32,000 nucleotides of DNA, from positions 581,081 to 613,080 of the forward strand of contig CAUQTV010000001.1 of assembly GCA_963521185.1 (NCBI GenBank). Reading direction: 5' to 3'. Source of the stretch: an uncultured Enterobacter sp. (GTDB taxonomy: Bacteria > Pseudomonadota > Gammaproteobacteria > Enterobacterales > Enterobacteriaceae). Below the pieces are notes generated by a model. That model worked only from the letters and a program-made list of their open reading frames with translations. It ran no database searches and was not told the DNA's origin. Shown piece after piece: positions 1 through 16,166 of the stretch; the first letter of the stretch is position 1; each line of letters opens with the position of its first letter. Made by a program: the position numbers and the translations under genes.

Positions 1-1463
1 GCTGCGCGGTCACCACCGAGCCGGTCGATCGCACCACCAGCCAGCAGCGCGCGCAGGCAGACTTGCAGGCGATGTTCAGTCATCAGGAGCCGGTCAACGG
101 GCCGATAACCTTACAGGAAGCCACCGCCCGCGCGCTGAAGTACAACCTGGAAGCGCGGCTGAAAATCATGGAAACGGCGCTGGCTGAGCAGCAGGTCTCC
201 CTCGCTCGCTTCGATATGCTGCCAAAAATGGCGGCGGACGCAGGCTATGTCACCCGCGATAACGTCAGCGCCTCCAGCAGCCGCAGCGTGCAGTCCGGTG
301 AACAGTCGCTGGAGCCGTCAACCTCGGAGGATAAAACTCGCCGCGTGGCCGATCTCACCATGGTGTGGAACATTCTCGATTTTGGCGTCAGCTACGTGAC
401 CGCGCACCAGCAGTCCGACAAGCGCTGGATAGCCGAAGAGCGCCGCCGCAAAGTCACCCATACCATTGTGCAGGATGTCCAGTCCGCTTACTGGCGCGCG
501 GTGGCGGCAGAGCGCTTGCTCAGTCGCATCGATACCCTGATTGGCCGCGTCAATATGGCGCGTGAAAACAGCGAAAAAATGACCACCCAGCGGGTCGGCG
601 ATCTGGTCGAAGCTTACAGCTACCAGCGTGCTCTGCTCGACGCCACCCGCCAGCTTGAAGAGCAGCGGCGTGCGCTGTCGCTGGCGAAAACCGAACTGGC
701 AACGCTGATGAACCTGCCGCTTGAAACGCACTATACGCTGGCGCTGCCGGATGAAAATAATCTGCCGGAGCCGACGTTAAACATCCCGTTCGAACAGCTT
801 GAGAACACCGCGCTCATCAATCGCCCGGAGCTGCGCGAGGAGGATTACCAGGCGCGGATCAGCGCCGCCGAAACGCGTAAATCCCTGCTGCGCATGCTGC
901 CCGGGATCGAAGTCAACGTGGGCGGCAACTATGACAGTAACTCATTTTTGGTTAACCAGAGCTGGGTGGATGCCGGGGTGAAAGTGACCTGGAATCTGTT
1001 CAACCTCTTCTCCGGCCCGGCGGCGTATGACGTGGCGAAAGCCGGTGAAACCGTGGGCGAGGCGCGTCGCCAGGCGATGTCGATGGCGGTACTGGCGCAG
1101 CTGTACGTGGCGCGTGCAAATTTCAACGAAGCCACCCGTCAGTACCGTACCGGCAAAGAGTTGCAAAAGCTCGACGCCTCTATTCTTGAACAGCTCAACA
1201 ACCGTTATAAAGCAGGCAGCATCGGCGAGCTACAGCTGATTCAGGGCGAGCTTAACGCGGTAAACACCTCGCTGCGTAACGATCTGGCGTATGCCGAACT
1301 GCGTAACGCCTGGGGACAAATCTTCGTCACCGCCGGGCTGGACCCGCTACCGCCGGGGCAGAAAACGTCCGATATCCCGTCGGTGGAACGTGCGCTGCAA
1401 CAGACGGAAAACCAGTGGCAGAGCGGTAGGGTGGCGATGCAAGCGCCGGGAGCCGTACAGTGA
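1..1463 (+). CDS. TolC-family outer-membrane efflux factor, probable lipoprotein (5' end outside window)
   Basis: The frame of the listed ORF (63..1463) stays open back to base 3. Translation from base 3 reads C-A-V-T-T-E-P-V-D..., which fits the +1 Cys of a lipoprotein whose lipobox lies off-window. The rest has the repeated coiled-coil/beta composition of OMF proteins (LKYNLEARL, LDATRQLEEQRRAL, NRPELREEDYQARISAAE, VTWNLFN). The TGA stop at 1461-1463 overlaps the next start (GTGA). Confidence 0.8.
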   Translation, partial: CAVTTEPVDRTTSQQRAQADLQAMFSHQEPVNGPITLQEATARALKYNLEARLKIMETALAEQQVSLARFDMLPKMAADAGYVTRDNVSASSSRSVQSGEQSLEPSTSEDKTRRVADLTMVWNILDFGVSYVTAHQQSDKRWIAEERRRKVTHTIVQDVQSAYWRAVAAERLLSRIDTLIGRVNMARENSEKMTTQRVGDLVEAYSYQRALLDATRQLEEQRRALSLAKTELATLMNLPLETHYTLALPDENNLPEPTLNIPFEQLENTALINRPELREEDYQARISAAETRKSLLRMLPGIEVNVGGNYDSNSFLVNQSWVDAGVKVTWNLFNLFSGPAAYDVAKAGETVGEARRQAMSMAVLAQLYVARANFNEATRQYRTGKELQKLDASILEQLNNRYKAGSIGELQLIQGELNAVNTSLRNDLAYAELRNAWGQIFVTAGLDPLPPGQKTSDIPSVERALQQTENQWQSGRVAMQAPGAVQ

Positions 1464-2254
1464 GCCGAACGCGTGGCAAAGCATGGCTGGCGCTGCTTGC
1501 GATCGCGCCGCTTTACCTGCATGCCGCACCCGCCGCGCAGACGGAGGACGAGCTTACGCTCGATGCGCCGTCAGCACCGGCGGCCACGGGCGGGCGTGAA
1601 GCGCGTGGCGTGCTGCGCGCGGTCGAACAGGCCACGCTCTCCAGCGAGCTGAATGCGCGTATCGTTGAGTTGCCGTTTCGCGAGGGCGAGTCGTTTCATA
1701 AAGGCGATTTGCTGGTGCGATTTGACTGCGCGGCTTACCAGGCGCAGCTTGCCGCGTCGCAGGGGGCCATGCGTGCCGCGCAGCAGGAGCTAAGCCAGAA
1801 CCGGCAGCTTGCGCAAATGCAGTCCGTCGGGCGCACGGCGGTGGGGTTGTCCGAAGCGCGGCTGGCGCAGGCGGCGGCGGAGAGTCAGGTCTACCAGATC
1901 CAGACCAGTCGCTGCCGGGTGCTGGCACCCTTTGACGGCCAGGTGGTATCGCGCAAAGCGCAGGTGTCCGAGTTTTTAGGCCAGGGCATGCCGCTGCTGG
2001 AGATCGTCAACAACAGCCATCTGGAGATTTACCTGCTGGTGCCGTCCCGCTGGCTGTCTACGCTCAAGCCCAAACAGACCTTCACCTTTACACCGGACGA
2101 GACGGGTGAGGCGTTGCAGGCGGAGATCCTGCGCACCGGGGCGAGAATCGACGAGAGCAGCCAGACGCTCACGCTGATTGGCCGCATCACCGGGGCCGGG
2201 GCCGGACTGCTGTCCGGCATGAGCGGCAGTGCGCACTTCACGGAGCCGCAATGA
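1460..2254 (+). CDS. Small periplasmic adaptor (membrane-fusion / HlyD-RND adaptor type) with signal peptide
   Basis: N-terminal signal-like MSRTRGKAWLALLAIAPLYLHAAPAAQ. Lipoyl-hairpin halves (ATLSSELNARIVELPFREGESFHKGDLLVRFD ... RVLAPFDGQVVSRKAQVSEFLGQGMPLLEIV) flank a coiled-coil segment. GTG start overlaps the upstream stop and the stop overlaps the next ATG (ATGA at 2251-2254). Confidence 0.75.
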   Translation: MSRTRGKAWLALLAIAPLYLHAAPAAQTEDELTLDAPSAPAATGGREARGVLRAVEQATLSSELNARIVELPFREGESFHKGDLLVRFDCAAYQAQLAASQGAMRAAQQELSQNRQLAQMQSVGRTAVGLSEARLAQAAAESQVYQIQTSRCRVLAPFDGQVVSRKAQVSEFLGQGMPLLEIVNNSHLEIYLLVPSRWLSTLKPKQTFTFTPDETGEALQAEILRTGARIDESSQTLTLIGRITGAGAGLLSGMSGSAHFTEPQ

Positions 2255-3570
2255 CGAGCGCAGACACCACGAACGCTGAACACATTTTCGCCCGGCTGTT
2301 GCAGCTTGAGCGGCTGGCGCGGCAGGCGGAAAACAGCGAAACCCTGGCCTGGTCGATGGTGAATGACAGCCAGAGCCTGCTCGGCTTTCGTCATGCGGCG
2401 TTGCTGATTGACGGACGCGTGCGGGCGCTGACCGGCGTGTCGGTGCCCGATCCCCATGCGCCGTTTGTCGCCTTCACTGAGCGCGCTGCCCGGCAGGTCG
2501 CGGCGCAGGGGCAGGCGGACAACGTTACCGTGGTCATCGCCGCCTGGCTGGACGAGCAGACCCGCCAGGCGTGGCAAAGCCTGTCTGCGGCGCACGCGCT
2601 GTGGGTCCCGCTGAAAAACCGCAGAGGTGAACGCGTTGGCGGGCTGTGGTTTGCCCGCGATACACAGTGGCAGGAGCATGAACTGCTGCTCGCCGGGCCG
2701 CTGGCTGAGTGCTGGGCCCATGCCTGGCAGGCGTTAGCGCCGCGCCGATCCTGGCGCGCCCGGCGGCTGAAAACCAAAGTGCTAGCGCTCGTGGTTGTGG
2801 TGCTGGTGGCGTTGCTGATCCCGGTGCGCCAGTCGGTGCTGGCCCCGGCGGAAGTGGTGCCGCTGGGCGGCCAGGTGGTGACCGCGCCCCTCGACGGGGT
2901 GATAGCCCAGATAAACGTGCGCCCGAATCAGGTGGTGAAAAAAGGGTTTCTGCTGGCCCAGTTTGACAGCACGGTGCAAAAAGCCCAGGCCGACGTTGCC
3001 GCGCGTGCGCTTGGCGTGGCGGAGGCCGAACTGCGCTCCGGCGCTCAGCGCGCTTTTCAGGACGCGGAGTCGAAAGCCCGGCTGGATCTGCTCGCCGCCC
3101 AGGTGGAGCAAAAACGCGCCGAACTGGCGTGGGCGCAGGATCTGTTGCAGCGCAGCGACGTGCGCGCCGGGCGTGATGGGATCGCGGTGTTTGCCGACGC
3201 CGATCAGCTTGTCGGCAAACCGGTGAGCACCGGCGAGCGGCTGATGGCGATTGCCGACCCGCAACAGGCGGAACTGAAAATTGAACTGGACGTGGGCGAC
3301 GCGATAGATTTCCCCGCCGATGCCGACGTGACGCTGTTTCTCGACAGCGATCCGCTGGTGCGTCACGATGCGCGACTGACCCGCGTGGCCTATGAATCGG
3401 CGCTGACCGCACAGGGTAGCCTGGCGTGGCGGCTTGATGCCCGCTTTATCGACAAAGCCCCGCGCATTGGCCTGCGCGGTACGGCAAAAGTGTATGGTGA
3501 GCGGGTGCCGCTGGCGCTCTATTTGCTGCGTCGTCCGCTGGCAGCGCTGCGTAAAGCGGTGGGCCTGTAA
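2251..3570 (+). CDS. HlyD-family adaptor with about 165-aa cytoplasmic N-terminal domain (GAF-like pattern), one TM helix
   Basis: TM segment VLALVVVVLVALLIPV sits after a soluble N-domain. It is followed by lipoyl-hairpin halves (VVTAPLDGVIAQINVRPNQVVKKGFLLAQFD ... VRAGRDGIAVFADADQLVGKPVSTGERLMAIAD) around a long coiled coil. ATGA overlap upstream and TAATG overlap downstream. Confidence 0.75.
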   Translation: MTSADTTNAEHIFARLLQLERLARQAENSETLAWSMVNDSQSLLGFRHAALLIDGRVRALTGVSVPDPHAPFVAFTERAARQVAAQGQADNVTVVIAAWLDEQTRQAWQSLSAAHALWVPLKNRRGERVGGLWFARDTQWQEHELLLAGPLAECWAHAWQALAPRRSWRARRLKTKVLALVVVVLVALLIPVRQSVLAPAEVVPLGGQVVTAPLDGVIAQINVRPNQVVKKGFLLAQFDSTVQKAQADVAARALGVAEAELRSGAQRAFQDAESKARLDLLAAQVEQKRAELAWAQDLLQRSDVRAGRDGIAVFADADQLVGKPVSTGERLMAIADPQQAELKIELDVGDAIDFPADADVTLFLDSDPLVRHDARLTRVAYESALTAQGSLAWRLDARFIDKAPRIGLRGTAKVYGERVPLALYLLRRPLAALRKAVGL

Positions 3571-5672
3571 TGAGCGTATTGCCCGCACTGCGCGACGATT
3601 TGCAACTGTGCGCCGCTCCGCCCGCGCTCGATGGATCCCCCCAGTGGACGCTGGCTGACACGCTGGCGGGGCGCTATTTCAAACTCAGCGGCAGCGCCAT
3701 GCGCCTGCTGCGCCACTGGGCGCTGGGAGAGGAGGAGCGGGTGCTGGCCGCGGCGAACCGGGAAGCGGGCGTGCCGCTTGGCAGCGACGAAGTGCAGGGG
3801 CTGTTGCGCTTTTTACGCGCCAACGATCTGATCGTCGGCAGCGATAGCGAGCAGCGCGCCAGCTATGGCCTGAAGGCAGCGGCGCGGCGCAAAGGTCTGC
3901 TAACGCAACTGCTGCATCAGTATCTTTTCTTCCGCATTCCGCTCTGGCGTCCCGATCCCTTTCTTAACCGATGCTGGCCGCTACTGGCGCGGCACGGCGG
4001 CTGGCTGCTGCGGTATGGGTTACCGCTCATTGCGATCCTCGGCGGCTATCTGGTGAGCCGCGACTGGCCGCGCTATCGCGATTCATTCTCCTGGCTTTTC
4101 AGCCTGGAAGGGGCGGCGGCCTTTGGCGTGACGCTGGTATTCGCCAAATTTACCCACGAACTGGGGCATGCGTTTATGGCCAGGCGCGCCGGATGCCGGG
4201 TGCAAAGCATGGGCGTGGCCTTCGTGGTGATGTTCCCGATGTTTTACACCGACGTGAGCGACGCCTGGCGCGTGCACTCAACGCGCGCCCGTCTGCTGAT
4301 TGGCGCGGGTGGCATGCTGGCGGAGTTGATGCTGGCGGTCATTGCGCTGCTGGCCTGGTCGCTGTTGCCGGAAGGGCCGCTGCGCACGGCGGCGTTTTTG
4401 CTCTCCAGCGCCACCTGGCTGACCACGCTGGCGGTCAACCTTAATCCGCTGATGCGCTTTGATGGCTATTTTATTCTCAGCGACGCCTGGCAGGTGGATA
4501 ACCTGCAAGGTCGCGCCTTTGCCCTGTGCCGCTGGCGGCTGCGCGAGGCGCTGTTTGGCTATGGCGATCCGCCGCCGCAGCGCTGGTCACCGGGAATGCA
4601 GCGCCGTTTGCTGATCTGGGGTTACGCCTCATGGCTGTGGCGCTTCTTTCTGTTTCTGGGGATCGCGCTGGCGGTGTATCACTTCTTTTTCAAGCTGCTG
4701 GGCCTGTTTCTGATGGCGGTGGAGGTGAGCTGGTTTATCGCACAGCCGATGGTGCATGAATTTCGCCACTGGTGGAAAGAGCGTCAGCGTGCGCAGCCCA
4801 GGCGGGCGATCTGCATCGCGCTGGGTCTGGCGTTCCTGCTGCTGGTGCTGTTTGTGCCCTGGCGCAACCAGATTGCGATCCCCGCGCAGCTCGACGCCGC
4901 CCGCGTCAGCACCCTTTATGCCCCTGTCGCTGCGCAGCTTGTCGCGCTGCATGTGCGTGACGGCCAGACGGTCAGCGCCGGGCAACGCTTGCTGGTGCTG
5001 GAGGCTCCGGATCTGAATGCCCGTCAGGCCATCGCCCGGCAAAAAATCGCGATTTTGCAATTGCAGCTACGCCGGCTTGCCGCCCAGCGAGACACGGTGG
5101 GCGATACGCTGATTTTGCACCAGCAGCTGGCGGAATCGCTGGCGGAGTATCGCGGTCTGGCGGCGCAGCGGCGCAGGCTGGAGATCCGCGCGCCCTGGGC
5201 CGGGCAGGTGCGCGATGTGGAGCAGGATCTGGCCCCCGGCCGCTGGCTGGCTGCGGACCAGCCGCTGTTGCGCGTGGTCAATGCCGGTGCCGGACGCATT
5301 CGCGGCTATTTGCCGGAAGATGCGCTTAGTGCCATCCAGCCTGCGGCGACAGGGCGCTTTATTGCCGACGATCCCAGTCGGGCGGCGCAGGCGGTGCGCG
5401 TGCAGTCCATCGATCCCACCGCCTCGGCGTTTATTGAGCGAGAAGCGCTGACCTCCGATCACGGCGGCCCGGTGGCGGTGCGCCGGGACGGGCAAAAACG
5501 GGCGCGACCGGTTCAGGCCTGGTACGGCGTGGACATCGTCGTGACCGACAACGCAGCATTTCCGCCGCAGCCCCTGCGGGGTGTGGTGGTCATTAACGGC
5601 AAGGCAGAATCTCTGTTTACCAGCGTCTGGCGTCGCATTGCCGTGCTGGGCATCAGAGAGAGTGGTTTTTAG
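3570..5672 (+). CDS. Peptidase M50 (site-2-protease family) zinc metalloprotease fused to C-terminal HlyD-like adaptor domain
   Basis: HELGH (HExxH) at residues 196-200 (nt 4155-4169). Second M50 motif NLNPLMRFDG with Asp298 (nt 4461-4463). Several hydrophobic helices. C-terminal third has lipoyl-hairpin halves (TLYAPVAAQLVALHVRDGQTVSAGQRLLVLEAPDL ... EIRAPWAGQVRDVEQDLAPGRWLAADQPLLRVV) around a coiled coil. The first roughly 90 aa resemble a PqqD/RRE-like winged helix. Confidence 0.8.
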   Translation: MSVLPALRDDLQLCAAPPALDGSPQWTLADTLAGRYFKLSGSAMRLLRHWALGEEERVLAAANREAGVPLGSDEVQGLLRFLRANDLIVGSDSEQRASYGLKAAARRKGLLTQLLHQYLFFRIPLWRPDPFLNRCWPLLARHGGWLLRYGLPLIAILGGYLVSRDWPRYRDSFSWLFSLEGAAAFGVTLVFAKFTHELGHAFMARRAGCRVQSMGVAFVVMFPMFYTDVSDAWRVHSTRARLLIGAGGMLAELMLAVIALLAWSLLPEGPLRTAAFLLSSATWLTTLAVNLNPLMRFDGYFILSDAWQVDNLQGRAFALCRWRLREALFGYGDPPPQRWSPGMQRRLLIWGYASWLWRFFLFLGIALAVYHFFFKLLGLFLMAVEVSWFIAQPMVHEFRHWWKERQRAQPRRAICIALGLAFLLLVLFVPWRNQIAIPAQLDAARVSTLYAPVAAQLVALHVRDGQTVSAGQRLLVLEAPDLNARQAIARQKIAILQLQLRRLAAQRDTVGDTLILHQQLAESLAEYRGLAAQRRRLEIRAPWAGQVRDVEQDLAPGRWLAADQPLLRVVNAGAGRIRGYLPEDALSAIQPAATGRFIADDPSRAAQAVRVQSIDPTASAFIEREALTSDHGGPVAVRRDGQKRARPVQAWYGVDIVVTDNAAFPPQPLRGVVVINGKAESLFTSVWRRIAVLGIRESGF

Positions 5673-5703
5673 TTCGCCTCAACCCTCATTAAGGAAACAC
5701 CTG

Positions 5704-6375
5704 ATGAACAGACGTGCAAAATCCTCATTATGTCTCGTTGCCTCCGGTCTGCTTGTGTTCTCTTTTTCATCGCACGCGCTGGCCTGCGGTGATGGAGATC
5801 CCTACATCGGATCGGTGTGCTTCAACGTTGCGCCTTATTGTCCCGATCTCTATCTTGAGGCCGCCGGACAGTCGGTGAACATCTCTGATTACCAGGCGCT
5901 TTATGCGCTGATTGGCACCACCTACGGCGGTACGACAACGACCTTTATGCTACCGGATCTGCGCGGGCGTGCGCCGGTCGGGCAAGGAACCGGGCCAGGG
6001 CTTACGGCGGCGGTACAGGGCCAGCCTCGCGGTGCGGAAAGCGTGACGCTAAACGCGTCGAACCTGCCGCCGCACGCCCACGCGGGCACCTTTACCCCCG
6101 GCAGCGGATCGGCGCTGTCATTTAACGCCACCAGCAACGCGGCGACATCAGCAACGCCAACCGCTGCGGCCAACCAGTTGAGCACCTCAGCCGGACCGGC
6201 GGTGAAAATGTATGCCCCGTCGGGCGGCACGCAGGTTCCCCTGGCGGGCGTGGGTGGCGCGGCGATCACCGTACAGCCTGCCGGATCGGGTTCCGCCGCC
6301 GTGCCGGTTGTTTCACCGCAGTCGGTACTCAAAGCCTGTATCGCGGTCAACGGTGTTTTCCCCACCCAGTCATAA
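5704..6375 (+). CDS. Exported phage-tail-collar-domain (MdpB-like) protein, paralog 1
   Basis: ATG at 5704 lies 8 nt after AAGGA (5691-5695); the listed GTG at 5581 would overlap the upstream gene. Signal peptide ends ALA|C. Collar-domain motifs YQALYALIGTTYGG..F.LPDLRGRAPVGQGTGPGL, then RGAESVTL..NLPPHAH and C-terminal PQSVLKACIAVNGVFP. Confidence 0.8.
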   Translation: MNRRAKSSLCLVASGLLVFSFSSHALACGDGDPYIGSVCFNVAPYCPDLYLEAAGQSVNISDYQALYALIGTTYGGTTTTFMLPDLRGRAPVGQGTGPGLTAAVQGQPRGAESVTLNASNLPPHAHAGTFTPGSGSALSFNATSNAATSATPTAAANQLSTSAGPAVKMYAPSGGTQVPLAGVGGAAITVQPAGSGSAAVPVVSPQSVLKACIAVNGVFPTQS

Positions 6376-6402
6376 TGCCACTTATTGATAAGGATCAGAC
6401 TC

Positions 6403-7080
6403 ATGAACTGTTCTTTGACCTCTCCGCTCACCCTGACGGCCTGCGCCCTGGCGCTGCTCTCTGCGTCTCCTAATGTGCTGGCGTGCAGTGTCGATCCCTA
6501 CGTGGGTGCGGTGTGCTTTATGGCAACGAGCTTCTGCCCGCGCGGCTATGTGGAAGCTAACGGCCAGCAGATGGCGGTCCAGCAATCGCAGGCGCTGTAC
6601 TCGCTCATTTCGCGGGTGTATACCCCGTCCTCCACCGGTAATACCGCCTTTAACCTGCCCGATCTGCGCGGCAGAAGCCCGGTGGGTATGGGTGTCGAAG
6701 CCAACGGAACCGTGCTGACGCAGGGGCAAATGCGCGGTGCGGAAACCGCCGTTATGGATCTCTCGAACATGCCGCCCCATAGCCACCAGGCGGCACCCGG
6801 TACGGCGGCGTTTTCCCTGAGCGCGACGAGCAATGCCGGCACCTCCACTGGCCCGGCGACGGCCACCAACCAGTTAGCTGCCGCAAGCGGCCCGGCGACA
6901 AAAATCTACGCCCCAGCGGGAGGCACGCAAATTCCGCTGGCGGGGGTGAACGGCGCTCTGACCGGGGCGACGGTGGCGGTGAGCAATACGGGCCAGGCGG
7001 TGCCTTTCGCCACGCTGACACCGCAGACGCCACTGCGCGCCTGCGTGGCGGTGATGGGCATTTATCCGCGAAGACCTTAG
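6403..7080 (+). CDS. Exported phage-tail-collar-domain (MdpB-like) protein, paralog 2
   Basis: ATG at 6403 lies 8 nt after AAGGA (6390-6394). Signal peptide ends VLA|C. Motifs SQALYSLISRVY...FNLPDLRGRSPVGMG, RGAETAVMDLSNMPPHSH and C-terminal PQTPLRACVAVMGIYP. Confidence 0.8.
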   Translation: MNCSLTSPLTLTACALALLSASPNVLACSVDPYVGAVCFMATSFCPRGYVEANGQQMAVQQSQALYSLISRVYTPSSTGNTAFNLPDLRGRSPVGMGVEANGTVLTQGQMRGAETAVMDLSNMPPHSHQAAPGTAAFSLSATSNAGTSTGPATATNQLAAASGPATKIYAPAGGTQIPLAGVNGALTGATVAVSNTGQAVPFATLTPQTPLRACVAVMGIYPRRP

Positions 7081-7132
7081 CGGGTGCGCGAACGAACCTC
7101 TTTTTTCACCACAGTGATATAAGGAACAGGCA

Positions 7133-7807
7133 ATGAAAACCTCTCTTTCTCTGGTGGTTGCGACAACAGCGTTACTGGCTTTCTCGTCCGGCGCACAGGC
7201 GTGCGAAGGCGAGGGCGAGTTTATCGGCGCGGTGTGCTTTACGGCGGCGACCTTCTGCCCGTCGGGTTATCTTGACGCGAACGGGCAAACCGTACTCGTC
7301 AATCAGTTTCAGGGGCTTTACAGCCTGGTGGGCAATCACTATGGCGGTACGCCGGGTGTTAACTTTACGCTGCCGAATCTGCAAGGCTTCAGCCCGGCGG
7401 GGCAGGGAACGGGGCCGGGGCTAACTAACGCTGCGCAATACAGTACGCGCGGCGCAGAGAGCCAAACGCTGACTCAGGCGCAGCTTCCTGCCCATACGCA
7501 TACGGCGACGCTCAATCCCACCGCGACCGGCCTTAGCGTAAATGCCAGCACCAGCCCTGGGGCGAATGCCGCGCCGTCCGCGGCCAATAACCAACTGGCG
7601 ACGGCGACGCCAAACGCAAAAATCTATGCGCCAGCCAGCACCGGTAGCGATACGGTTCCGCTTGCCGGGCTTGCGGGCGGTATCGCCGGGGCGGCTGTGG
7701 CGCTGGCGACCACCGGCGGCGGCATGCCAATAACGACGGTTTCTCCACAGCTGGTGCTGAAAGCCTGTATCGCTTACGACGGCGATTATCCGGTTAACCC
7801 GAATTAA
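7133..7807 (+). CDS. Exported phage-tail-collar-domain (MdpB-like) protein, paralog 3 (divergent DLRGR motif)
   Basis: ATG preceded by AAGGAACAGG. Signal peptide ends AQA|C. Motifs FQGLYSLVGNHYGG...FTLPNLQGFSPAGQGTGPGL, RGAESQTLTQAQLPAHTH and C-terminal PQLVLKACIAYDGDYP. Confidence 0.8.
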   Translation: MKTSLSLVVATTALLAFSSGAQACEGEGEFIGAVCFTAATFCPSGYLDANGQTVLVNQFQGLYSLVGNHYGGTPGVNFTLPNLQGFSPAGQGTGPGLTNAAQYSTRGAESQTLTQAQLPAHTHTATLNPTATGLSVNASTSPGANAAPSAANNQLATATPNAKIYAPASTGSDTVPLAGLAGGIAGAAVALATTGGGMPITTVSPQLVLKACIAYDGDYPVNPN

Positions 7808-7820
7808 CCCTCAGCAAATC

Positions 7821-7848
7821 GTCACGCCAGGCGCTTCTCTGGCGTGAC
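7821..7848 (+). terminator. 10-bp stem hairpin downstream of the tail-collar genes (no U-tract)
   Basis: GTCACGCCAG (7821-7830) pairs with CTGGCGTGAC (7839-7848) around an 8-nt loop, 14 nt after the stop at 7807. There is no T-run, so terminator function is uncertain. Confidence 0.35.
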
Positions 7849-8038
7849 AGGATATGTCACGCGAAGGGATCACTAAAAAGAATACGCCAGAAATGGCTTG
7901 TTATTCAGCGGCTTGTGATAAGCGAATTATTATGCCCCCTGGCCTGAAATTCATCCGTTACGTTGACATATCCTGACACCGACACCCCGCATAATATCCC
8001 CACAAAACAACAAACTGACATCAAAAGGACTTCGGGAC

Positions 8039-8761
8039 GTGAAGAAGCCTCACACTCGCCATGACCGACTGGCGGTGCGCTTATCGGTGATGATAAGTCG
8101 CTTGCTGGCCGGGGAAACGCTCAATCTGGGTGCGCTTGCGGAGGAGTTCGGTGTTTCTGAGCGCACTTTGCAGCGCGATCTGCATGAGCGGCTTTTGCAT
8201 CTCGATCTCATTCATCACAACGGTCACTACAGCATGCCGGGCAACCGCATTCGCCAGCACTCCCCAGATATTCTGACCTTTACGCGTAATACCGGGATTG
8301 CGGCGGTATTCCCCGGTCAGCACCGCAGACTGGTGAATACGATAGCCGCCAGTAAAGACATGCAGCCATGCGTGATTTCGCTGCCGGAACTGCGTTTTTC
8401 CGCCACCGTGGCGGACTGTTTTCACCGACTGCTGCTGGCCATTACACAGAGTCGCCGCATCATTTTATTTACCGACGGCGAACAGTACGTCAGCACGGAA
8501 CCTTACCAGCTTATTTTCCAGAAAGAGGCCTGGTATCTGGTGGCGTGGTGCCAGGACGCCGTGCAGGTTTTTGCGCTCGACGATATCGACGCGGTGATTG
8601 TGATGGAGCAGGTCTTCAGCCGACGCCGGGATATTAGCGCGCTGGCGGCGCAGGCGCGTTTTATTGCCGCACTTCCGTATTTCCGCGTTATTCATGAGGT
8701 GCAGGCGACGCTGAATCAACACGGTGATGGCTTCGATAAACGAAACCAGAAATATTTGTAA
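8039..8761 (+). CDS. HTH + WYL-domain transcriptional regulator
   Basis: N-terminal DeoR/YafY-type HTH (LNLGALAEEFGVSERTLQRDLHE). Central WYL signature (PYQLIFQKEAWYLVAWCQDAVQVFALDDI). GTG start 9 nt after AAGGA. Confidence 0.8.
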   Translation: MKKPHTRHDRLAVRLSVMISRLLAGETLNLGALAEEFGVSERTLQRDLHERLLHLDLIHHNGHYSMPGNRIRQHSPDILTFTRNTGIAAVFPGQHRRLVNTIAASKDMQPCVISLPELRFSATVADCFHRLLLAITQSRRIILFTDGEQYVSTEPYQLIFQKEAWYLVAWCQDAVQVFALDDIDAVIVMEQVFSRRRDISALAAQARFIAALPYFRVIHEVQATLNQHGDGFDKRNQKYL

Positions 8762-8798: not shown

Positions 8799-9089
8799 AT
8801 GCACACTTCCGAATCCCGCCCTCTGACGCCCGTAGAGAGCTGGCAGAAATTATTAACCTGGCTACTGGCCAAACATTATGGACTGGCGCTCAGCGAAACG
8901 CCTTTTGACGATCCGGCGGTTATTGGCGGCTATATTGATGCTGACGTGTCGCTGGTGGATGCCCTCAATGAATGGGTTAAGTGCGTAGCGATCACGCGCA
9001 TTGATACGCCCCCGTTCCACTGGCGGGAACCCACGCCCTATATCGAACTTATCGATATTTTGCAGGCGCAGCAGTGGGTGAAATTGTAA
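8799..9089 (+). CDS. CbtA/YeeV/YkfI-family (type IV TA) toxin-like protein, short form
   Basis: SRPLTPVESWQKLLTWLLAKHYGLALSETPFDDPAVIGGYIDADVSLVDALNEWV..ITRID lines up by eye with E. coli CbtA [54 protein letters not shown]..LVRTD. It is shorter at both ends than the 124-aa CbtA. Confidence 0.7.
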   Translation: MHTSESRPLTPVESWQKLLTWLLAKHYGLALSETPFDDPAVIGGYIDADVSLVDALNEWVKCVAITRIDTPPFHWREPTPYIELIDILQAQQWVKL

Positions 9090-9600: not shown

Positions 9601-9829
9601 AGGGACAGCCTGTACCTGATTTGCGAATGCGTGAGAAGCATACTGTGACAGGAGATGGCTGACAATTGTAATGAGGATAAATGCGGCGAGCTACGCAGAA
9701 GTGGAAAATAGCGCCCTGAAACTAAAAATCCATGCAGGGTGGGGGAAAAGAAAGTCTGCGATCCTTTTTGAAGGTTATGGCGGATATGATATTATTAAAT
9801 CATTCCAATAACCCATGCGGGAGAGCGTC

Positions 9830-10504
9830 ATGCGTGTCCAGAAAGTGCAATCTGGGGTTTCCACCCTGACTGGAACCCCGGAAGAAGTGCGTAACAGGCT
9901 CGGTAAATCACATGCCGATCACGTGCTGGTCGTCAGTTTCGAGCACCTGAGTCCTTCCGGGTCAAAAATATTTATTGAAAATCTGTCCAGCGTGGCGTCG
10001 TCCATGTTTGGGCTGCTTCAGGAACAGCAGAGTCGCAACTCGCTACAGCGTCTGGCGGATGCACTGGTGCCGCGTACACCAGCGCCACCCCGGCTTATCA
10101 GAGAAACAGCCATGCTGGTTAAGGCGCGCAAAGCCGTTCTGGACAGTGGTGACTGGCTGAGCGCTGCCGAACTGGCACAGTTGGCGCAGCTGAGCACCAC
10201 CAATCCGAGCGCTCAGCCGAACAAATGGAAGAAGAACGGACACATCTTCGCGATTCACCACAACGGTGTTGATTACTTCCCCGGCTATGGCCTGGACAGG
10301 GATGCGAATTTCCGGCCTCTGAAAACGATGGCTCAGGTGATCGAGGTGTTTGACGGCCATAAAGACGGATGGGGGATGGCCTTCTGGTTTCTCTCGGCCA
10401 ACAGCTTCCTTGGTGGGAAACGACCGCAGGACTTACTTGCTACAGACCCTGAGCGGGTGATCGCGGCAGCCATGGATGAAGTTCAGGGTGTCGAGCATGG
10501 CTAA
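9830..10504 (+). CDS. Xre/MbcA/ParS-type antitoxin (C-terminal DUF2384 toxin-binding domain), long form
   Basis: C-terminus WFLSANSFLGGKRPQDLLATDPERVIAAAMDEV is the DUF2384 signature. It sits immediately upstream of, and overlaps, a RES-domain gene. ATG 9830 is preferred over 9815 because GGGAGAG (9819-9825) lies 4 nt upstream. Confidence 0.75.
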   Translation: MRVQKVQSGVSTLTGTPEEVRNRLGKSHADHVLVVSFEHLSPSGSKIFIENLSSVASSMFGLLQEQQSRNSLQRLADALVPRTPAPPRLIRETAMLVKARKAVLDSGDWLSAAELAQLAQLSTTNPSAQPNKWKKNGHIFAIHHNGVDYFPGYGLDRDANFRPLKTMAQVIEVFDGHKDGWGMAFWFLSANSFLGGKRPQDLLATDPERVIAAAMDEVQGVEHG

Positions 10505-11204
10505 GCGTCCTGTCAGGGCAAAGGGTGTCCCTGAGCAACCGGAGCAGGAGGAGGCGGGAACTACGCCACTGCCTCAACCCGGTCCCCTTAAAACCACAAC
10601 ACTGTCAGTGAGTGCAGGAACAGTGTTGCACCGCGTCCATCAGGAGCAATGTGCGGCCGACCAGTTCAACCCGGGTGTCAAAGGCAACGCGCGTTTTAGC
10701 CCCATCCGGAATGCGGAGGGCGGCACCATCCCGACCCTGTACGCAGGCCTGACCAGGGAGTGCGCCATGATGGAGACCGTCTTTCACGATGTGCCTTTTG
10801 CGCCAGGGCTTAAAACGTACGATAAAAGCAAACTGGACGGGCAGTTGCACTCGACGCTGATGGTCACCGACGATCTGGAGTTACTGGATCTGACCAGTAT
10901 CTCGTTGCGCAAACTGGGTATCACCCGCAAGCAGTTGATCGATACGGAGAAGGATCAGTATCCCAATACCCGCAAATGGGCCGAGGCGTTGCATCAGCAG
11001 TGCCCGACGGCACAGGGGTTATCCTGGGTCTCCAGGCAGGATGACACCACGCGGGCCATGGTACTGTTTGGCACTCGGGTTTCTGTGCAGGCACTTCGTC
11101 CCACAGGCGAGTCGCTTAGTCTGGTCAATGACACCGCCACCTACGATGCTGTGCTCGATTTGGCTGAGAGGCTGGATGTGCTGATTGTCCCGGGTAAAGA
11201 CTGA
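10497..11204 (+). CDS. RES-domain toxin (MbcT/ParT-like NAD+-targeting family)
   Basis: R-E-S landmarks are GNARFSP, RECAMMETVFHD and GLSWVSRQDD. ATG 10497 overlaps the antitoxin stop (ATGGCTAA, 8-nt overlap); the listed start at 10476 is the alternative. Confidence 0.85.
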   Translation: MAKRPVRAKGVPEQPEQEEAGTTPLPQPGPLKTTTLSVSAGTVLHRVHQEQCAADQFNPGVKGNARFSPIRNAEGGTIPTLYAGLTRECAMMETVFHDVPFAPGLKTYDKSKLDGQLHSTLMVTDDLELLDLTSISLRKLGITRKQLIDTEKDQYPNTRKWAEALHQQCPTAQGLSWVSRQDDTTRAMVLFGTRVSVQALRPTGESLSLVNDTATYDAVLDLAERLDVLIVPGKD

Positions 11205-11476: not shown

Positions 11477-11983
11477 ATGGACACCGCTACAGTAACAACG
11501 TCAGAAAAACCTACTTTGCACCTGTTATGTGGAAAAATTGCATCTGGGAAATCCACACTGTCAGCAAAGCTGGGATCATCACCTGGCACCGTAATTGTCA
11601 GTGAGGATCTTTGGCTGGCTGCTCTCTTTGCTAAAGAAATGCATTCCATATCTGATTATGTTCAGTATTCCTCAAGGCTGAGAAATGCTATGAAACCTCA
11701 TCTGGTGTCACTACTCAAAGCTGGTTTATCAATAGTTCTTGATTTCCCGGCAAACACACAAACAAATCGTGAATGGATGATGAGCATCATTAAGGAGTCA
11801 GGTGCTTGTAACCAACTGCACTATCTCAAAGTATCTGATGAAGTATGTAAATCCCGCTTACGCGCTCGTAACGCAGAAGGAGAACATGAATTTTCCGCTT
11901 CAGATCAACAATTTGAAATCATAACGCGTTATTTCTCAGAACCAAAAGCTGATGAAGGGTTTAATATTATAGAATACAGCTGA
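11477..11983 (+). CDS. P-loop NTPase / small kinase-like ATP-binding protein (AAA_33-like)
   Basis: Walker A CGKIASGKST near the N-terminus. About 170 aa, typical of small nucleotide or antibiotic kinase-like proteins. RBS GTGAGG upstream. Lies in the AT-rich context. Confidence 0.7.
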   Translation: MDTATVTTSEKPTLHLLCGKIASGKSTLSAKLGSSPGTVIVSEDLWLAALFAKEMHSISDYVQYSSRLRNAMKPHLVSLLKAGLSIVLDFPANTQTNREWMMSIIKESGACNQLHYLKVSDEVCKSRLRARNAEGEHEFSASDQQFEIITRYFSEPKADEGFNIIEYS

Positions 11984-12671: not shown

Positions 12672-13157
12672 ATGTGGGAAAAATTTATAATCAAAAACTT
12701 CAACAAAGTTAAAGATGTTAATTTCAAGAGAGCACCGCTCTATGAGTCAGAAGGTGGATCTCTTACCTCTGGCACTTTGGCGATAAAACTCGGAGCATCT
12801 GTTGACACTCTTCCCCCAGGCAAAAGATGTTCACCTTTTCATTTTCATCATGTTCAGGAAGAAATGTTTATCGTTTTAAAAGGCAATGGAACATTGAGAA
12901 TCGCAGATGAGATGGTTGAGATAGAGGAAGGGGACGTTATATGTATTCCCCCTGGAGAGGCATACCCACATCAAATCATAAATACTTCATCCTTGCCACT
13001 TACTTATATGTCTGTGAGTACCATGGAGACGCCCGAGGTCTGTGAGTATCCAGACTCAAATAAATATTTAGTTAAATCAACTAACCAGAAAGAACAGGGG
13101 TTTAGAGTCGCAGATTTCAGGAGCAGAGGGGTGGATTATTGGGAGGGTGAGCCTTGA
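12672..13157 (+). CDS. Cupin-domain protein
   Basis: Cupin motifs are FHFHHVQEEMFIVLKGNG and GDVICIPPGEAYPHQIIN. ATG 12672 is preceded by GGAG (12661-12664). The listed upstream extension from 12489 has no cupin-like sequence. Confidence 0.75.
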   Translation: MWEKFIIKNFNKVKDVNFKRAPLYESEGGSLTSGTLAIKLGASVDTLPPGKRCSPFHFHHVQEEMFIVLKGNGTLRIADEMVEIEEGDVICIPPGEAYPHQIINTSSLPLTYMSVSTMETPEVCEYPDSNKYLVKSTNQKEQGFRVADFRSRGVDYWEGEP

Positions 13158-13476
13158 TTCAAAAAATACCGTTTCCATTTCTATCACTAGTAACATCCGC
13201 TCTTGGCTCGGAGCAGAAATGCGCGCCCAGCAATGTCCGCTGTGAGCGAGGTATAGTCATTCGTACCCTGAGAATTACACTTTGAAGTGATTCAGGGTAT
13301 GCGCTTACTGGTTACGAATATTGAGCGAGAATCATGTGATGATCGCCGCTTTTCTTTCGAACCAGTAGGTGCTCCACGTTCGCTAACGAATACTCAGGGC
13401 ATGCAGATAAACTGCTGGCTATATTTCTTTCGAAGAGCGTGGAATGCATACCAATCCCCGATAAAAGGAGTTGGTG

Positions 13477-14715
13477 ATGACTGCGACTAATTAATTTGCT
13501 GCACATGTTGGTCTGGACTGGGCAGATAAAAAACACGATGTATGTGTTCAGTTTAAAAACGGTGAACGCGTATTCCATGTGATTGAACATACAGCAGAAG
13601 CGCTTGATGCCTGGCTTACCGAGTTACACCAGAAGGTAAAAGGCAGGATCGCTATAGCTCTCGAGCTGAAGAAGGGACCCGTGGTGTATGCTCTTCAGAA
13701 ATATCCGTTTATCACCGTTTTCCCCGTCCACGCTTTGTCCCTGGCTCGTTACCGGCAAGCCTTCTCGCCCAGCGGAGCTAAAGATGACCCGCAGGATGCC
13801 GAGCTGGCATTAGAGTTAATGCTGCGTTATCCCCAAAAGATAAAAGCCATTGAACTCGACAATGCGGATATCCGGTTACTCCAGCAACTGGTTGAGCAGC
13901 GTCGTCAACTGGTTGAAGATAAACGACGTTTCGTGAACCGGCTAATCAACACGCTTAAACAGTATTATCCTCAGCCACTGGAGTGGTTCTCACATCGGGG
14001 TAGCTTGCTGTTGTGTGAACTGATTATACGGTGGCCCAGTCTGCAACAACTCAAACGCGCCAGGCGCGATACAATCCGCGACTTTCTCAATGCTAAAGGT
14101 GGCCGCGCAATGGCTCTTACCGAGCAGCGTGTGGTGAGTATTGATAACGCGATCCTATTGACGACAGACCCGAGTGTTATAGAGGCTAATGCTTTGATGG
14201 CAACAGCACTGGCGACACAAATTAAAGTCGTGAGTGAAATAATCAAAACCTATGACGAACGAATCGAAACGCTGTTTGACACATTGCCGGATGCGGTGCT
14301 GTTCAAATCACTTCCGGGCATGGGGCCGTGTATGGGCCCACGAATGCTTGCTGCACTTGGTGATAACCGTGACCGGTTTAACAACGCTGAAGAAATTCAA
14401 AACTACGCAGGTATTGCACCGGTGACAGAACGAAGTGGCCAGAAATCCTGGGTTCACTGGAGATGGCAGTGTGCGAAGTTCGTCAGGCAGACATTTGTTG
14501 AATGGGCTGCCAGGACGGTTAACTCATCATACTGGGCCAAACTTTATTACCAGGGCCAGCGAGACAAAGGGAAATCGCATCAATCAGCCATCCGGGCTCT
14601 GGCGTTTAAATGGATAAGGATCATTTACCGCTGCTGGAAGACCAGAACCCGCTACGACGAAGCAAAATATTTGCTGGCACTCGAAGCGCGACGCTCGCCC
14701 TTACTTAGGCCATAA
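13477..14715 (+). mobile_element. IS110-family insertion sequence, transposase gene region (minimum extent, element ends not determined); frame interrupted by TAA at 13492-13494
   Basis: AAAAGGAG (13463-13470) followed by ATG 13477 reads M-T-A-T-N-stop. The same frame then continues F-A-A-H-V-G-L-D-W-A-D-K-K-H-D-V-C-V... into the listed ORF. GLDWADKKHD matches the N-terminal GIDxxK motif carrying the first DEDD aspartate. Confidence 0.7.
13579..14715 (+). CDS. IS110-family transposase, longest intact ORF (lacks N-terminal catalytic Asp segment)
   Basis: Typical IS110/IS1111-type sequence: LKSLPGMGPCMGPRMLAALGD...AGIAPVTERSGQKSWVHWRW.C.KFVRQTF.EWA...YY..QR.KGKSH..AIRALAFKWIRIIYRCW. The GTG start is simply the first start codon after the in-frame stop. 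Confidence 0.8.
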   Translation: MIEHTAEALDAWLTELHQKVKGRIAIALELKKGPVVYALQKYPFITVFPVHALSLARYRQAFSPSGAKDDPQDAELALELMLRYPQKIKAIELDNADIRLLQQLVEQRRQLVEDKRRFVNRLINTLKQYYPQPLEWFSHRGSLLLCELIIRWPSLQQLKRARRDTIRDFLNAKGGRAMALTEQRVVSIDNAILLTTDPSVIEANALMATALATQIKVVSEIIKTYDERIETLFDTLPDAVLFKSLPGMGPCMGPRMLAALGDNRDRFNNAEEIQNYAGIAPVTERSGQKSWVHWRWQCAKFVRQTFVEWAARTVNSSYWAKLYYQGQRDKGKSHQSAIRALAFKWIRIIYRCWKTRTRYDEAKYLLALEARRSPLLRP

Positions 14716-14978
14716 AAGCTTGTCGAATGTCTCAGGGCGTGAAGCGGACAATGCTAACAGCATTCTGTGTGAATCAATAGGGAGCATGTCATGTTAATCA
14801 ACAACGATATATTTTCTCCATATGCACGTTCAAGTTCATTGCGTCAGTAAACTATATAATTGCTAACGATGATAAGTATAATTATATAAGCCTTTGCCCT
14901 TAGCTTTTGAATAATTTTGTTGAAGTTTCACGAAAATAATGATAAACAAAAAAAGTAGCAATAATTAAGGATTTAATT

Positions 14979-15911
14979 ATGGAATGGAGATTTTTAGGTT
15001 CTATATCAGAGGCTAGGAAATCTGGCTGTAGCGGAGTTTATCTTATTGTCCATAAAGGGATTTTCAATCGTGTGGTTTACGTTGGGGTAAGTTGTAATGT
15101 AGGTAGAAGGATAAACGAACATTACGACGGTTACCTGAGAGGAAACCGAACAATTTACGACGCGGGCCACGATGACGACGTGTATCGCTTCATGTCAGCT
15201 TATAAAATTCATAACCACACAAAATACTATCAAGCCTTGGCGAAGGATTATAAGATATGGGCATCTACAACATTGCATTCTGATTTGCCGAAAAACATGC
15301 TAGCAAAAAGCCAAATCTTTGATACCGACTGGCAGAGTATTGCATTTGAAAAATATATTCCTCAACTGGTAGTATGGGCCCTTCCAATGGCAAGTTACTG
15401 TTATTCAAATGCAAGCAGGATTGAAAGTGTAATCCAATCAAAGCTCATTAAATCTTTTGATTTGAGAGGTTTTTTTAATATAAAAGAACTAAGCATATTG
15501 GGTAAAATTGAATATCCCTATATGGAAAAGGTCAAGGCTTTCATTATTGATACGCCTGATTTGGATCCGGCATCCCAGCTTATTTTTAGCAATCTGTATA
15601 ACAAAAAAACTGATGACAACTTCTGTAAAGAGTTCCACTCACAGTTTAAAAGAGAGATTTTTCAGAGGGAAATTGGAACTCAGAGAAAGCGAACTATCAG
15701 GGAGCATAAGGTCTCTCTTTATGAAAATTATGGCAAGCCTTGGACTTTAAAGGAAATGGAAAAACTTAGAGTCATGCTTGTCGATTTTGATTTGTCCCCG
15801 ACAGAAATATCTGAGTATATGGGAAGAGAGCCTCGCTCTATCTCTAAAAAAATAAGCGAAAATGATAAAGTTACTAATTATAAATGGCGAGAGAGCGTCG
15901 GCTGGTTGTGA
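14979..15911 (+). CDS. Hypothetical protein with N-terminal GIY-YIG-like nuclease motif and C-terminal Myb/SANT-like HTH
   Basis: SGVYLIVHKGIFNRVVYVGVSCNVGRRINEHY fits GIY-(x10)-YxG-(x)-R..H. RIESVIQSKL is a possible catalytic Glu helix. The C-terminus KPWTLKEMEKLRVMLVDFDLSPTEISEYMGREPRSISKKI resembles a Myb-like repeat. Strongly AT-rich gene. Confidence 0.55.
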   Translation: MEWRFLGSISEARKSGCSGVYLIVHKGIFNRVVYVGVSCNVGRRINEHYDGYLRGNRTIYDAGHDDDVYRFMSAYKIHNHTKYYQALAKDYKIWASTTLHSDLPKNMLAKSQIFDTDWQSIAFEKYIPQLVVWALPMASYCYSNASRIESVIQSKLIKSFDLRGFFNIKELSILGKIEYPYMEKVKAFIIDTPDLDPASQLIFSNLYNKKTDDNFCKEFHSQFKREIFQREIGTQRKRTIREHKVSLYENYGKPWTLKEMEKLRVMLVDFDLSPTEISEYMGREPRSISKKISENDKVTNYKWRESVGWL

Positions 15912-16110
15912 CGTTACGTTTTGATTGAAATAACCCCATTTTGCAAGGTCCGCTCCTGGCACGCACCGGACCTCTCGAATGAGTTCTATCCTCGGTATTC
16001 ACTAAGTGCAATAAATTCTAATCGGATTCTACAACCCATTTGTCCAGCATATCAGCCCAACCCTGTACTCATTTTAACCGCGTTGTTATGAGATGAGTTG
16101 AGGCACTATA

Positions 16111-16143
16111 AAACAAAAAATCCACGCAACTGCGTGGATTTTT
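16111..16143 (-). terminator. Rho-independent (bidirectional) terminator downstream of ychF
   Basis: AATCCACG (16119-16126) pairs with CGTGGATT (16133-16140). It is flanked by an A-run (16111-16120) and a T-run (16139-16143), and on the minus strand is followed by TTTTTTGTTT. It lies 24 nt after the ychF stop. Confidence 0.8.
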
Positions 16144-16166
16144 AGGTGCAAATGTGGGGCAGGGCG

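Follow-up and report, generated by a model that had tools for sequence, protein, structure and literature searches.

The window analysed here is a 32,000-nucleotide (nt) stretch of DNA from an uncultured Enterobacter sp. [quoted passage not shown] The results revealed that this RRE-M50-adaptor protein is the signature part of a cassette found across phyla, which also comprises a giant repeat adhesin, a TolC-like channel, an adaptor and a second adaptor. We favour, with moderate confidence, a model in which the RRE docks a leader of the giant protein, the M50 site removes this leader, and the adaptors and the channel export the adhesin.

An exhaustive HMMER search with the 700-residue protein returned 11,438 cluster representatives at E < 0.001 and 2,669 at E < 1e-30 (50%-identity clusters), and the best 150 matches were nearly all about 700 amino acids (aa) long, aligned end to end and mostly 33-45% identical. 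Family members were found in soil- and plant-associated Pseudomonas, in Azospirillum, in the plant pathogens Dickeya and Pectobacterium, and on plasmids of E. coli, Citrobacter and Kosakonia, and their annotations were all generic (e.g., 'HlyD family efflux transporter periplasmic adaptor subunit'). The initial annotation had reported that the two M50 motifs, HELGH and NLNPLMRFDG, are intact; their coordinates were confirmed exactly (Table 1), and the Peptidase_M50 model of Pfam (PF02163) scored 29.4 bits, barely above its cutoff of 27.2. To assess residue conservation, the query was aligned with 149 representatives, each taken from a different 50%-identity cluster and 33-58% identical. H196, E197 (the Glu of HELGH), H200, N290 and D298 (the third zinc ligand, codon GAT at 4461-4463) were all kept in 150/150 sequences, and because of this invariance the motifs are taken to be under strong purifying selection and not chance occurrences. 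A second HExxH-like string, HEFRH (aa 396-400, window 4755-4769), was considered as another metal site and rejected, since neither His is conserved. It sits in the cytoplasmic loop before transmembrane (TM) helix 7, where P393, E397 and W401 are conserved in at least 95% of the family.

The N-terminal domain was modelled alone with AlphaFold2 (AF2), using 21 homologues. The model (predicted local distance difference test, pLDDT, 79.5) contained strands at residues 11-16, 25-30 and 35-39 and helices at 41-48, 55-63 and 72-84, reproducing the strand-strand-strand then three-helix pattern that had been noticed earlier in the first roughly 90 residues. When this model was compared with the Protein Data Bank (PDB) by Foldseek, ranks 1-10 were all RREs, and from rank 11 the probability was below 0.4. 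The top matches were structures of TbiB1 with leader peptides (5v1u/5v1v; E 1.4e-3, probability 1.0, TM-score 0.66-0.68 on the target), followed by the sactipeptide synthase CteB, TfuB1 with its leader, and TglHI; several of these ten structures were solved with a leader peptide bound. Sequence comparison by hhalign with a K. pneumoniae PqqD sequence, verified as PqqD through its PDB matches, gave the correct register at a non-significant E of 0.03-0.3, and the N-domain profile retrieved weak winged-helix regulators of the HlyU/ArsR type (E ~0.1) from the PDB sequences. Full-length homologues on Methylosinus and Pseudosulfitobacter plasmids carry the RefSeq names 'PqqD family protein' and 'PqqD family peptide modification chaperone'. 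In the Pseudosulfitobacter homologue, the N-domain matched PqqD (3g2b) over almost its whole length (E 4.9e-5), and the window N-domain profile aligned to that N-domain over 96 columns (E 0.0021). By predicted fold and remote homology, the N-domain is an RRE, though undetectable as Pfam PqqD. The PqqD/RRE proposal made for this N-terminus in the initial annotation was thus upheld by the Foldseek top ten and by the transitive chain to PqqD, but not as a match to PF05402.

The membrane part of the protein was examined in a full-length AlphaFold2 model (mean pLDDT 78), which placed TM helices at residues 144-163, 176-200, 240-265, 272-292, 347-368, 372-392 and 410-430, with HELGH at the end of TM2 and NxxPxxxxDG right after TM4. 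The loops carry 17 Lys and Arg residues on the predicted cytoplasmic side versus 3 on the periplasmic side, a distribution that fits an N-in, C-out arrangement. The predicted topology therefore has seven TM helices, with the RRE and the active site in the cytoplasm and the adaptor in the periplasm; on which side of the membrane HExxH and the adaptor lie had been raised as a question earlier, and both the model and the positive-inside count give this same answer. The best NCBIfam match was NF041824, daptide_HExxH (E 3e-38), in which residues 32-398 aligned colinearly with positions 24-369 of the 379-position model at 131.9 bits, a score under the family cutoff of 300. On the M50 part alone this model scored 115.9 bits, versus 16.6 bits at most for RseP models (TIGR00054, cutoff 147.6), and the next-best families were the YydH/LiaK epipeptide proteases. 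As judged by these profile scores, the M50 part is closest, among characterised relatives, to RiPP leader peptidases, namely the daptide MpaP family and YydH/LiaK.

For the C-terminal roughly 250 residues, the earlier reading as a HlyD-type adaptor was borne out by both Pfam and Foldseek. HlyD_3 covered aa 440-618 (E 5.8e-13, 50 bits versus a cutoff of 22.2), and Biotin_lipoyl_2 and HlyD_D23 matched the same residues, each under its own cutoff. Residues 431-700 matched the adaptors MacA (3fpp, E 3.8e-12), MexA, AcrA, ZneB and EmrA in the PDB, with E values from 1e-9 to 4e-12, and the two helices of the adaptor hairpin were placed at 480-506 and 510-535 in the AlphaFold2 model. The RRE fold, the M50 relatives and the adaptor domain together support the proposal of the initial annotation that one polypeptide may combine leader recognition, intramembrane cleavage and periplasmic bridging.

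The RRE-M50-adaptor gene is the fourth in a tight series that starts with a TolC-family channel gene, continues with two adaptor genes (adaptor 1 and adaptor 2) and is followed by three tail-collar genes (Table 1). The channel and adaptor 1 genes overlap by 4 nt, the adaptor 1 and adaptor 2 genes by 4 nt, and the start of the RRE-M50-adaptor gene overlaps the preceding stop by 1 nt (TAATG), so the genes from the channel to the RRE-M50-adaptor protein are translationally coupled. This single operon holds an outer-membrane factor (OEP) and HlyD-type adaptors, as type I secretion requires; the window cassette has no ATP-binding cassette (ABC), resistance-nodulation-division (RND) or major facilitator superfamily (MFS) gene. 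The window belongs to a metagenome scaffold of 1.7 Mb, the source contig (L001; window position = L001 position minus 6431), on which the complete channel gene encodes 517 aa (L001:6341-7894), and directly before it, upstream of the window, lies a giant gene with DUF4347 and Big_12 repeats (L001:385-6344), of which an intact copy was found at L090:3289-10332. An 80-kb Kosakonia cowanii plasmid carries an identical eight-gene cluster at 86.6% identity, with all genes generically named, in which the intact giant gene encodes a 2,347-aa 'Ig-like domain-containing protein'.

The cassette was then compared across two sets of loci: 81 close loci at an identity of at least 60% (Pseudomonas, Enterobacterales, Salinicola and Tolumonas), and 8 distant loci (Azospirillum, Methylobacter, Pseudohongiella, Nitrospirales, Magnetococcales, Desulfuromonas and two metagenomes), found through a representative that is 33% identical to the window protein and to which they are ~38-46% identical. 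The triad of adaptor 1, adaptor 2 and the RRE-M50-adaptor protein was present in 80 of the 81 close loci, with adaptor 1 undetected in the remaining one (L041), and was kept in all 8 distant loci. In the close loci the giant gene usually lay within 10 kb, followed by the TolC-like gene where the locus extends that far, and gene order varied by clade. Seven of the 8 distant loci had the giant gene and a channel-sized gene directly upstream; the giant gene was downstream in Nitrospirales and divergent in Azospirillum, and Pfam OEP matches were recorded for 4 of the 8 channel-sized genes. A full-length homologue at 35% identity is also encoded on E. coli, Citrobacter and Hafnia plasmids; of these, the plasmid whose genes were inspected, E. 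coli G5, has the five-gene cassette and no collar genes. ABC-like open reading frames (ORFs) occurred in 21 of the 81 close loci at variable, distant positions, and none was conserved in the distant loci. A tblastn search with SecA across 93 loci found no SecA-like gene in the window or in the 92 others. Two loci at ~28-30% identity, from Methylosinus and Pseudosulfitobacter, carry a truncated SecA paralogue (39-42% identical to SecA) directly after the RRE-M50-adaptor gene, and upstream a 26-38 kb gene for a leader-bearing giant protein.

The giant proteins share an N-terminal leader of 22-60 residues that closes in a near-invariant LEPRMLFDGAVAATV motif. In the protein encoded next to the window the leader reads MAWRHWF...AWSLEPRMLFDGAVAATV, residues 1-60 of the giant protein run MAWRHWFIRQPK...AWSLEPRMLFDGAVAATVHE, and an example of the leader peptide ends ...ILAWSLEPRMLFDGAVAATVHE. 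The beginning of the giant ORF carried the pattern LE[PA]RM[LM]FDGAVAATV, without exception on the same strand, in 73 of the 81 close loci, versus 0-1 matches in triplet-shuffled controls; the 8 loci without it were mostly truncated contigs. A median of 25 residues precede the motif, the start is often M-W-W or M-x-W-R, and the motif is 87-100% conserved per position over about 15 residues, after which come a low-complexity linker and DUF4347. Variants were found in Azospirillum (LVLEPRFLFDAAGV), Nitrospirales (LVLEPRVLFDGAAL), Magnetococcales (IALEPRVLFDGAGL), the E. coli plasmid (ALESRQLFDGAAL), Methylosinus (LEPRVLLNAD) and Pseudosulfitobacter (FEPRVLLSAD). Such a motif lay in roughly the first 50 residues of 73 out of 120 DUF4347 N-terminal fragments from the protein database. 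Neither Pfam nor NCBIfam has a model for the leader; NCBI gives the name 'LEPR-XLL domain' to a motif of this kind, which may correspond to the leader. Pfam reported no RTX repeats on the giant proteins.

The association was also examined in the reverse direction, starting from three DUF4347 proteins. The two with the leader motif, from Nitrospira and Marinobacter similis, both adjoin an M50-adaptor module, and the third, from Synechococcus and without the motif, had no module within the available 10 kb. In Marinobacter similis (CP007151, L091:6360-8521) the RRE with its linker (171 aa) and the M50-adaptor part (548 aa) are abutting separate ORFs, a split that is either natural or due to a frameshift; the giant protein of this organism also appears to be split into several ORFs.

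Taken together, these results are most consistent with the model stated at the outset. The RRE would bind the leader of the giant protein at the cytoplasmic face, and the M50 site would then clip the leader off, as the RRE-S2P protein MpaP does for daptides and C39 peptidases do in bacteriocin ABC exporters. The adhesin would leave the cell by a conduit made up of the TolC-like channel and the three adaptor-type proteins. The SecA paralogue of the sister branch, that of Methylosinus and Pseudosulfitobacter, fits leader-dependent export that begins with the N-terminus. More tentatively, the cassette might represent an ABC-free, leader-gated secretion route for giant adhesins, in which the RRE reads the LEPR-type leader, the S2P serves as leader peptidase and possibly as inner-membrane gate, and a SecA-type motor moves the cargo N-terminus-first. 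Such a motor would be the dedicated paralogue in one branch and, if present in the window branch, a recruited one.

Several points weigh against this model. The window branch has no linked ABC, RND, MFS or SecA-like gene that would account for the inner-membrane crossing of the giant protein. At E values up to 10, PF05402 (PqqD) matched neither the window N-domain nor ten diverse N-domains of the family, and the N-terminal 125 aa alone had no NCBIfam match. The ligands known for RREs are short peptides, whereas here the RRE would have to bind the N-terminus of a protein of 2,000-12,000 aa, and the leader lacks the membrane-spanning hydrophobic stretch typical of classical S2P substrates. In the source contig a scaffold gap breaks the giant gene, which is not part of the window, and the 81 close loci are mostly from Pseudomonas and hence non-independent. 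In addition, a C-terminal motif common to the giant proteins, G-x-P-x-[FL]-[ST]-x-QL with an amphipathic helix after it, could be the recognised signal instead. It was found in enteric, Pseudomonas, Methylobacter, Pseudohongiella, Desulfuromonas and metagenomic giant proteins in the form G[AKR]Px[FL][ST]xQL, ~12 residues, L..aL.

That C-terminal motif is the basis of a different proposal, in which the RRE reads it as a follower and the M50 site trims the C-terminus, as in C-terminus-first secretion. The motif is common to giant proteins of distant phyla at their extreme C-terminus, and type I secretion signals are C-terminal (PMC8277102). However, the N-terminal leader is far more conserved, the characterised homologue MpaP removes N-terminal leaders, and the sister branch has a SecA-like motor, SecA being established to take its substrates N-terminus-first; we therefore consider recognition of the C-terminus unlikely. 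The motif may also act as an additional signal, read for instance by the N-domain of adaptor 2 in the cytoplasm. The kinship with daptide and epipeptide leader peptidases, and the fact that RREs classically bind short precursor peptides, would also suit a protein that matures or exports an unrecognised nearby RiPP or bacteriocin and has the giant protein as an unrelated neighbour. However, the cassette comes without a conserved small ORF or tailoring enzyme, and the linkage to the giant gene survives rearrangements and phylum boundaries, which makes this reading very unlikely. Distinctly unlikely, too, is a role of the M50 domain in quality control or regulated intramembrane proteolysis, such as the cleavage of an anti-sigma factor or of a jammed component, or as an inner-membrane pore alone, with the RRE as a regulatory sensor. 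S2P enzymes classically signal, and an M50 protein of this kind was suggested to be an inner-membrane pore by Kamneva et al. (PMC4452313), but the cassette has no sigma/anti-sigma pair, the likeness to RseP is marginal (16.6 bits versus 115.9 bits for the daptide protease), and the invariance of the catalytic residues argues for catalysis over a purely structural role.

A further explanation concerns the three tail-collar proteins encoded directly downstream on the same strand, whose N-terminal peptides had been put forward in the initial annotation as plausible M50 substrates. The RRE would recognise these peptides, and the M50 site would cleave them either as a processing protease or as a signal-peptide peptidase acting after signal peptidase I, much as the S2P RseP is established to degrade remnant signal peptides. 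About 70 of the 81 close loci have a collar gene no more than 10 kb away, as does the Kosakonia plasmid. However, these genes were in either orientation and were absent from all 13 distant loci with a full-length homologue. The collar proteins of Pseudomonas and Salinicola start with MEVFMGTI... right after an in-frame stop and have no N-terminal extension, although the RRE-M50-adaptor protein of these loci is still ~62-65% identical and its RRE is highly conserved. Because hydrophobic N-termini are limited to one clade and the RRE is nearly invariant, the collar N-termini cannot be the conserved RRE ligand. In the window itself they are ordinary Sec signals ending AxA↓C, which would be handled by signal peptidase I. 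The RRE and the active site are predicted to be cytoplasmic. We give this explanation very little credence, the earlier substrate proposal is not supported, and the collar proteins are best regarded, on their distribution, as lineage-specific accessories and not as a conserved substrate.

As separate observations on the collar proteins, the three window paralogues have Cys at the mature N-terminus and four Cys each, and the Pseudomonas homologues are about 195 aa long, lack a signal peptide and are often encoded on the opposite strand (e.g., L081:13085-13672). The start of collar protein 2 was chosen from the source-contig gene call at 12834-13511 and an AAGGA ribosome-binding site. A 107-aa ORF beside the Pseudomonas collar gene, the sole small-peptide candidate considered as a substrate, was dropped, as its composition (rich in C, R and W) is that of a spurious antisense ORF and it is absent from the window.

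Table 1. Features of the window and of giant proteins. Positions are window positions unless a locus handle is given; aa, residues of the encoded protein.
Feature	Position	Strand	Details
TolC-family outer-membrane channel gene	1..1463	+	Pfam OEP E 1.7e-38; first ~90 nt precede the window
Adaptor 1, 264-aa periplasmic adaptor with N-terminal signal peptide	1460..2254	+	HlyD_3 E 6.8e-16; TIGR01730 RND_mfp 112.5 bits vs cutoff 94.9
Adaptor 2, 439 aa	2251..3570	+	~175-aa cytoplasmic N-domain, one TM helix, adaptor; HlyD_3 and Biotin_lipoyl_2 at aa 209-385
RRE / M50 site-2 protease / periplasmic adaptor fusion	3570..5672	+	700 aa, ATG start
RRE (PqqD-like winged-helix) domain, predicted	3570..3839	+	aa 1-90, predicted cytoplasmic; AF2, Foldseek and hhalign bridge
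M50/site-2 protease membrane core	3954..4784	+	aa 129-405; six TM helices and re-entrant beta-hairpin aa 210-230 (AF2)
HELGH zinc-binding/catalytic motif	4155..4169	+	aa 196-200, cytoplasmic end of TM2; H196/E197/H200 invariant 150/150
NLNPLMRFDG motif (NxxPxxxxDG)	4437..4466	+	aa 290-299; N290 and D298 invariant 150/150
Seventh TM helix	4797..4859	+	aa 410-430; hydropathy 2.67; AF2 helix 410-428; brings the polypeptide into the periplasm
Periplasmic adaptor (membrane fusion) domain	4860..5669	+	aa 431-700; lipoyl half-motifs, alpha-hairpin 480-535, beta-barrel
Tail-collar protein 1, 223 aa	5704..6375	+	Collar E 3.1e-18; Sec-type signal ...HALA↓CGDG
Tail-collar protein 2, 225 aa from ATG 6403	6403..7080	+	Collar E 1.1e-15; signal ...NVLA↓CSVD
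Tail-collar protein 3, 224 aa	7133..7807	+	Collar E 2.3e-14; signal ...GAQA↓CEGE
WYL/HTH regulator	8039-8761
CbtA-like toxin	8799-9089
RES-domain toxin pair	about 9815-11204
AAA_33 kinase	11477-11983
IS110 transposase	13579-14715
C-terminal motif of giant proteins, examples	L001:~6200-6341; L013:~19700-19827; also L083, L084, L087-L089

The N-domain of adaptor 2 (window 2251-2775) had no Pfam or PDB sequence match, including none to GAF. It occupies the position of the GAF domain of relatives, and BLAST aligned the adaptor part only; in the Marinobacter counterpart of adaptor 2 Pfam reported GAF at E 1.8e-12.

The cluster is probably a mobile island. It has this look because of the plasmid copy in Kosakonia, the flanking WYL, CbtA-like, RES and IS110 genes (Table 1) and a contrast in G+C content, which is 59-66% in window 1-8000 and 39-63% in the remainder, most of it at 39-58%. 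Promoter and terminator scans of 5500-8200 were uninformative.

Other loci showed additional genes. Between the RRE-M50-adaptor and giant genes, many Pseudomonas loci carry a GNAT acetyltransferase, a PMT_2-type glycosyltransferase and a sulfotransferase in 59, 32 and 46 of the 81 close loci, respectively (e.g., L081:12103-12600, 13798-15489 and 15601-16455), and these enzymes may modify the cargo. In the SecA_DEAD branch, the giant gene and the first adaptor gene are separated by a gene for a small DUF3467 protein, which the window lacks (L095:6489-6809 and L096:6504-6845). The DUF4347 domain of the giant proteins (e.g., L082:5272-5871, minus strand) carries ...ILSHGxxG... and ...LYGCxxG... 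strings, which by eye resemble the His-Gly and Cys dyad of clan CD (caspase/CHAT-like) and would suggest a self-processing cargo domain.

If the model is true, an orphan module described in 2015 would gain a cargo and a recognition signal, the surface delivery of a large class of giant DUF4347 adhesins would be explained, and leader recognition by RREs would extend from peptide natural products to protein sorting, with cargo of up to ~12,000 residues. In practical terms, it would give access to surface adhesins that matter in biofilm and in the colonisation of hosts, and the misleading generic annotation of the family would be corrected.

Among known systems, RseP shares with the window protein the M50 fold, the HExxH and LDG-type motifs and an active site near the cytoplasmic face, and it degrades signal peptides. 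Its sequence similarity is marginal, however, the window protein lacks PDZ domains, and topology and partners differ. The LapA/LapBCE and SiiE systems likewise place a giant Ig-like repeat adhesin beside a TolC-family channel and HlyD-type adaptors, but they use an ABC transporter and an uncleaved C-terminal signal, whereas the window cassette has no ABC gene and combines an M50 protease with three adaptor-type proteins and an N-terminal leader that is conserved. C39 peptidase ABC transporters (CvaAB-TolC) offer a likeness by analogy only, in that the leader is cut at the cytoplasmic face by a protease borne on the exporter. There the protease is a cysteine C39 enzyme that itself recognises the leader, and transport of a small bacteriocin is powered by ABC; here a zinc M50 enzyme would rely on an RRE, without ABC, for a giant adhesin.

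The two nearest precedents are MpaP and the module of Kamneva, Poudel and Ward. MpaP is an RRE-dependent intramembrane leader peptidase built as an RRE-S2P fusion (Ren et al. 2023, PMC10028931), and its daptide class was found through RRE domains (PMC10028931). Like the window protein, it has an N-terminal RRE fused to M50/S2P in the same domain order, and it removes an N-terminal leader with a short conserved motif. Unlike the window protein, which has a C-terminal adaptor, a TolC-like channel, two further adaptors and a giant adhesin, MpaP lacks an adaptor and belongs to Gram-positive RiPP clusters with MpaB/C/D/M tailoring enzymes and precursors of ~40 aa; neither the window nor related loci yielded aminotransferase, methyltransferase or MpaB/C genes. 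The 2015 study described a conserved locus of GAF-HlyD, Peptidase_M50-HlyD, HlyD/Biotin_lipoyl and sometimes OEP, with a secondary SecA_DEAD, and put forward a type-I-related machine in which SecA_DEAD would be the ATPase and M50 might form a pore, its role being 'completely unknown' (PMC4452313). The likeness lies in three adaptor-type proteins that include an M50-HlyD fusion and in the lack of an ABC transporter, and the arrangement with a SecA-like gene downstream recurs on the Methylosinus and Pseudosulfitobacter plasmids. By contrast, the window branch has no SecA_DEAD in 93 loci, the GAF domain of the 2015 module is present in the Marinobacter relative whereas window adaptor 2 has a 175-aa N-domain without a GAF match in its place, and the 2015 paper has no RRE/PqqD, cargo or leader (PMC4452313). 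We found no experimental study of an M50-adaptor/giant adhesin system in the open-access literature, and one may exist elsewhere. The RRE-S2P fusion and the orphan M50-HlyD module were thus already known, and the presence of an RRE on that module together with a leader on its cargo appears to be undescribed.

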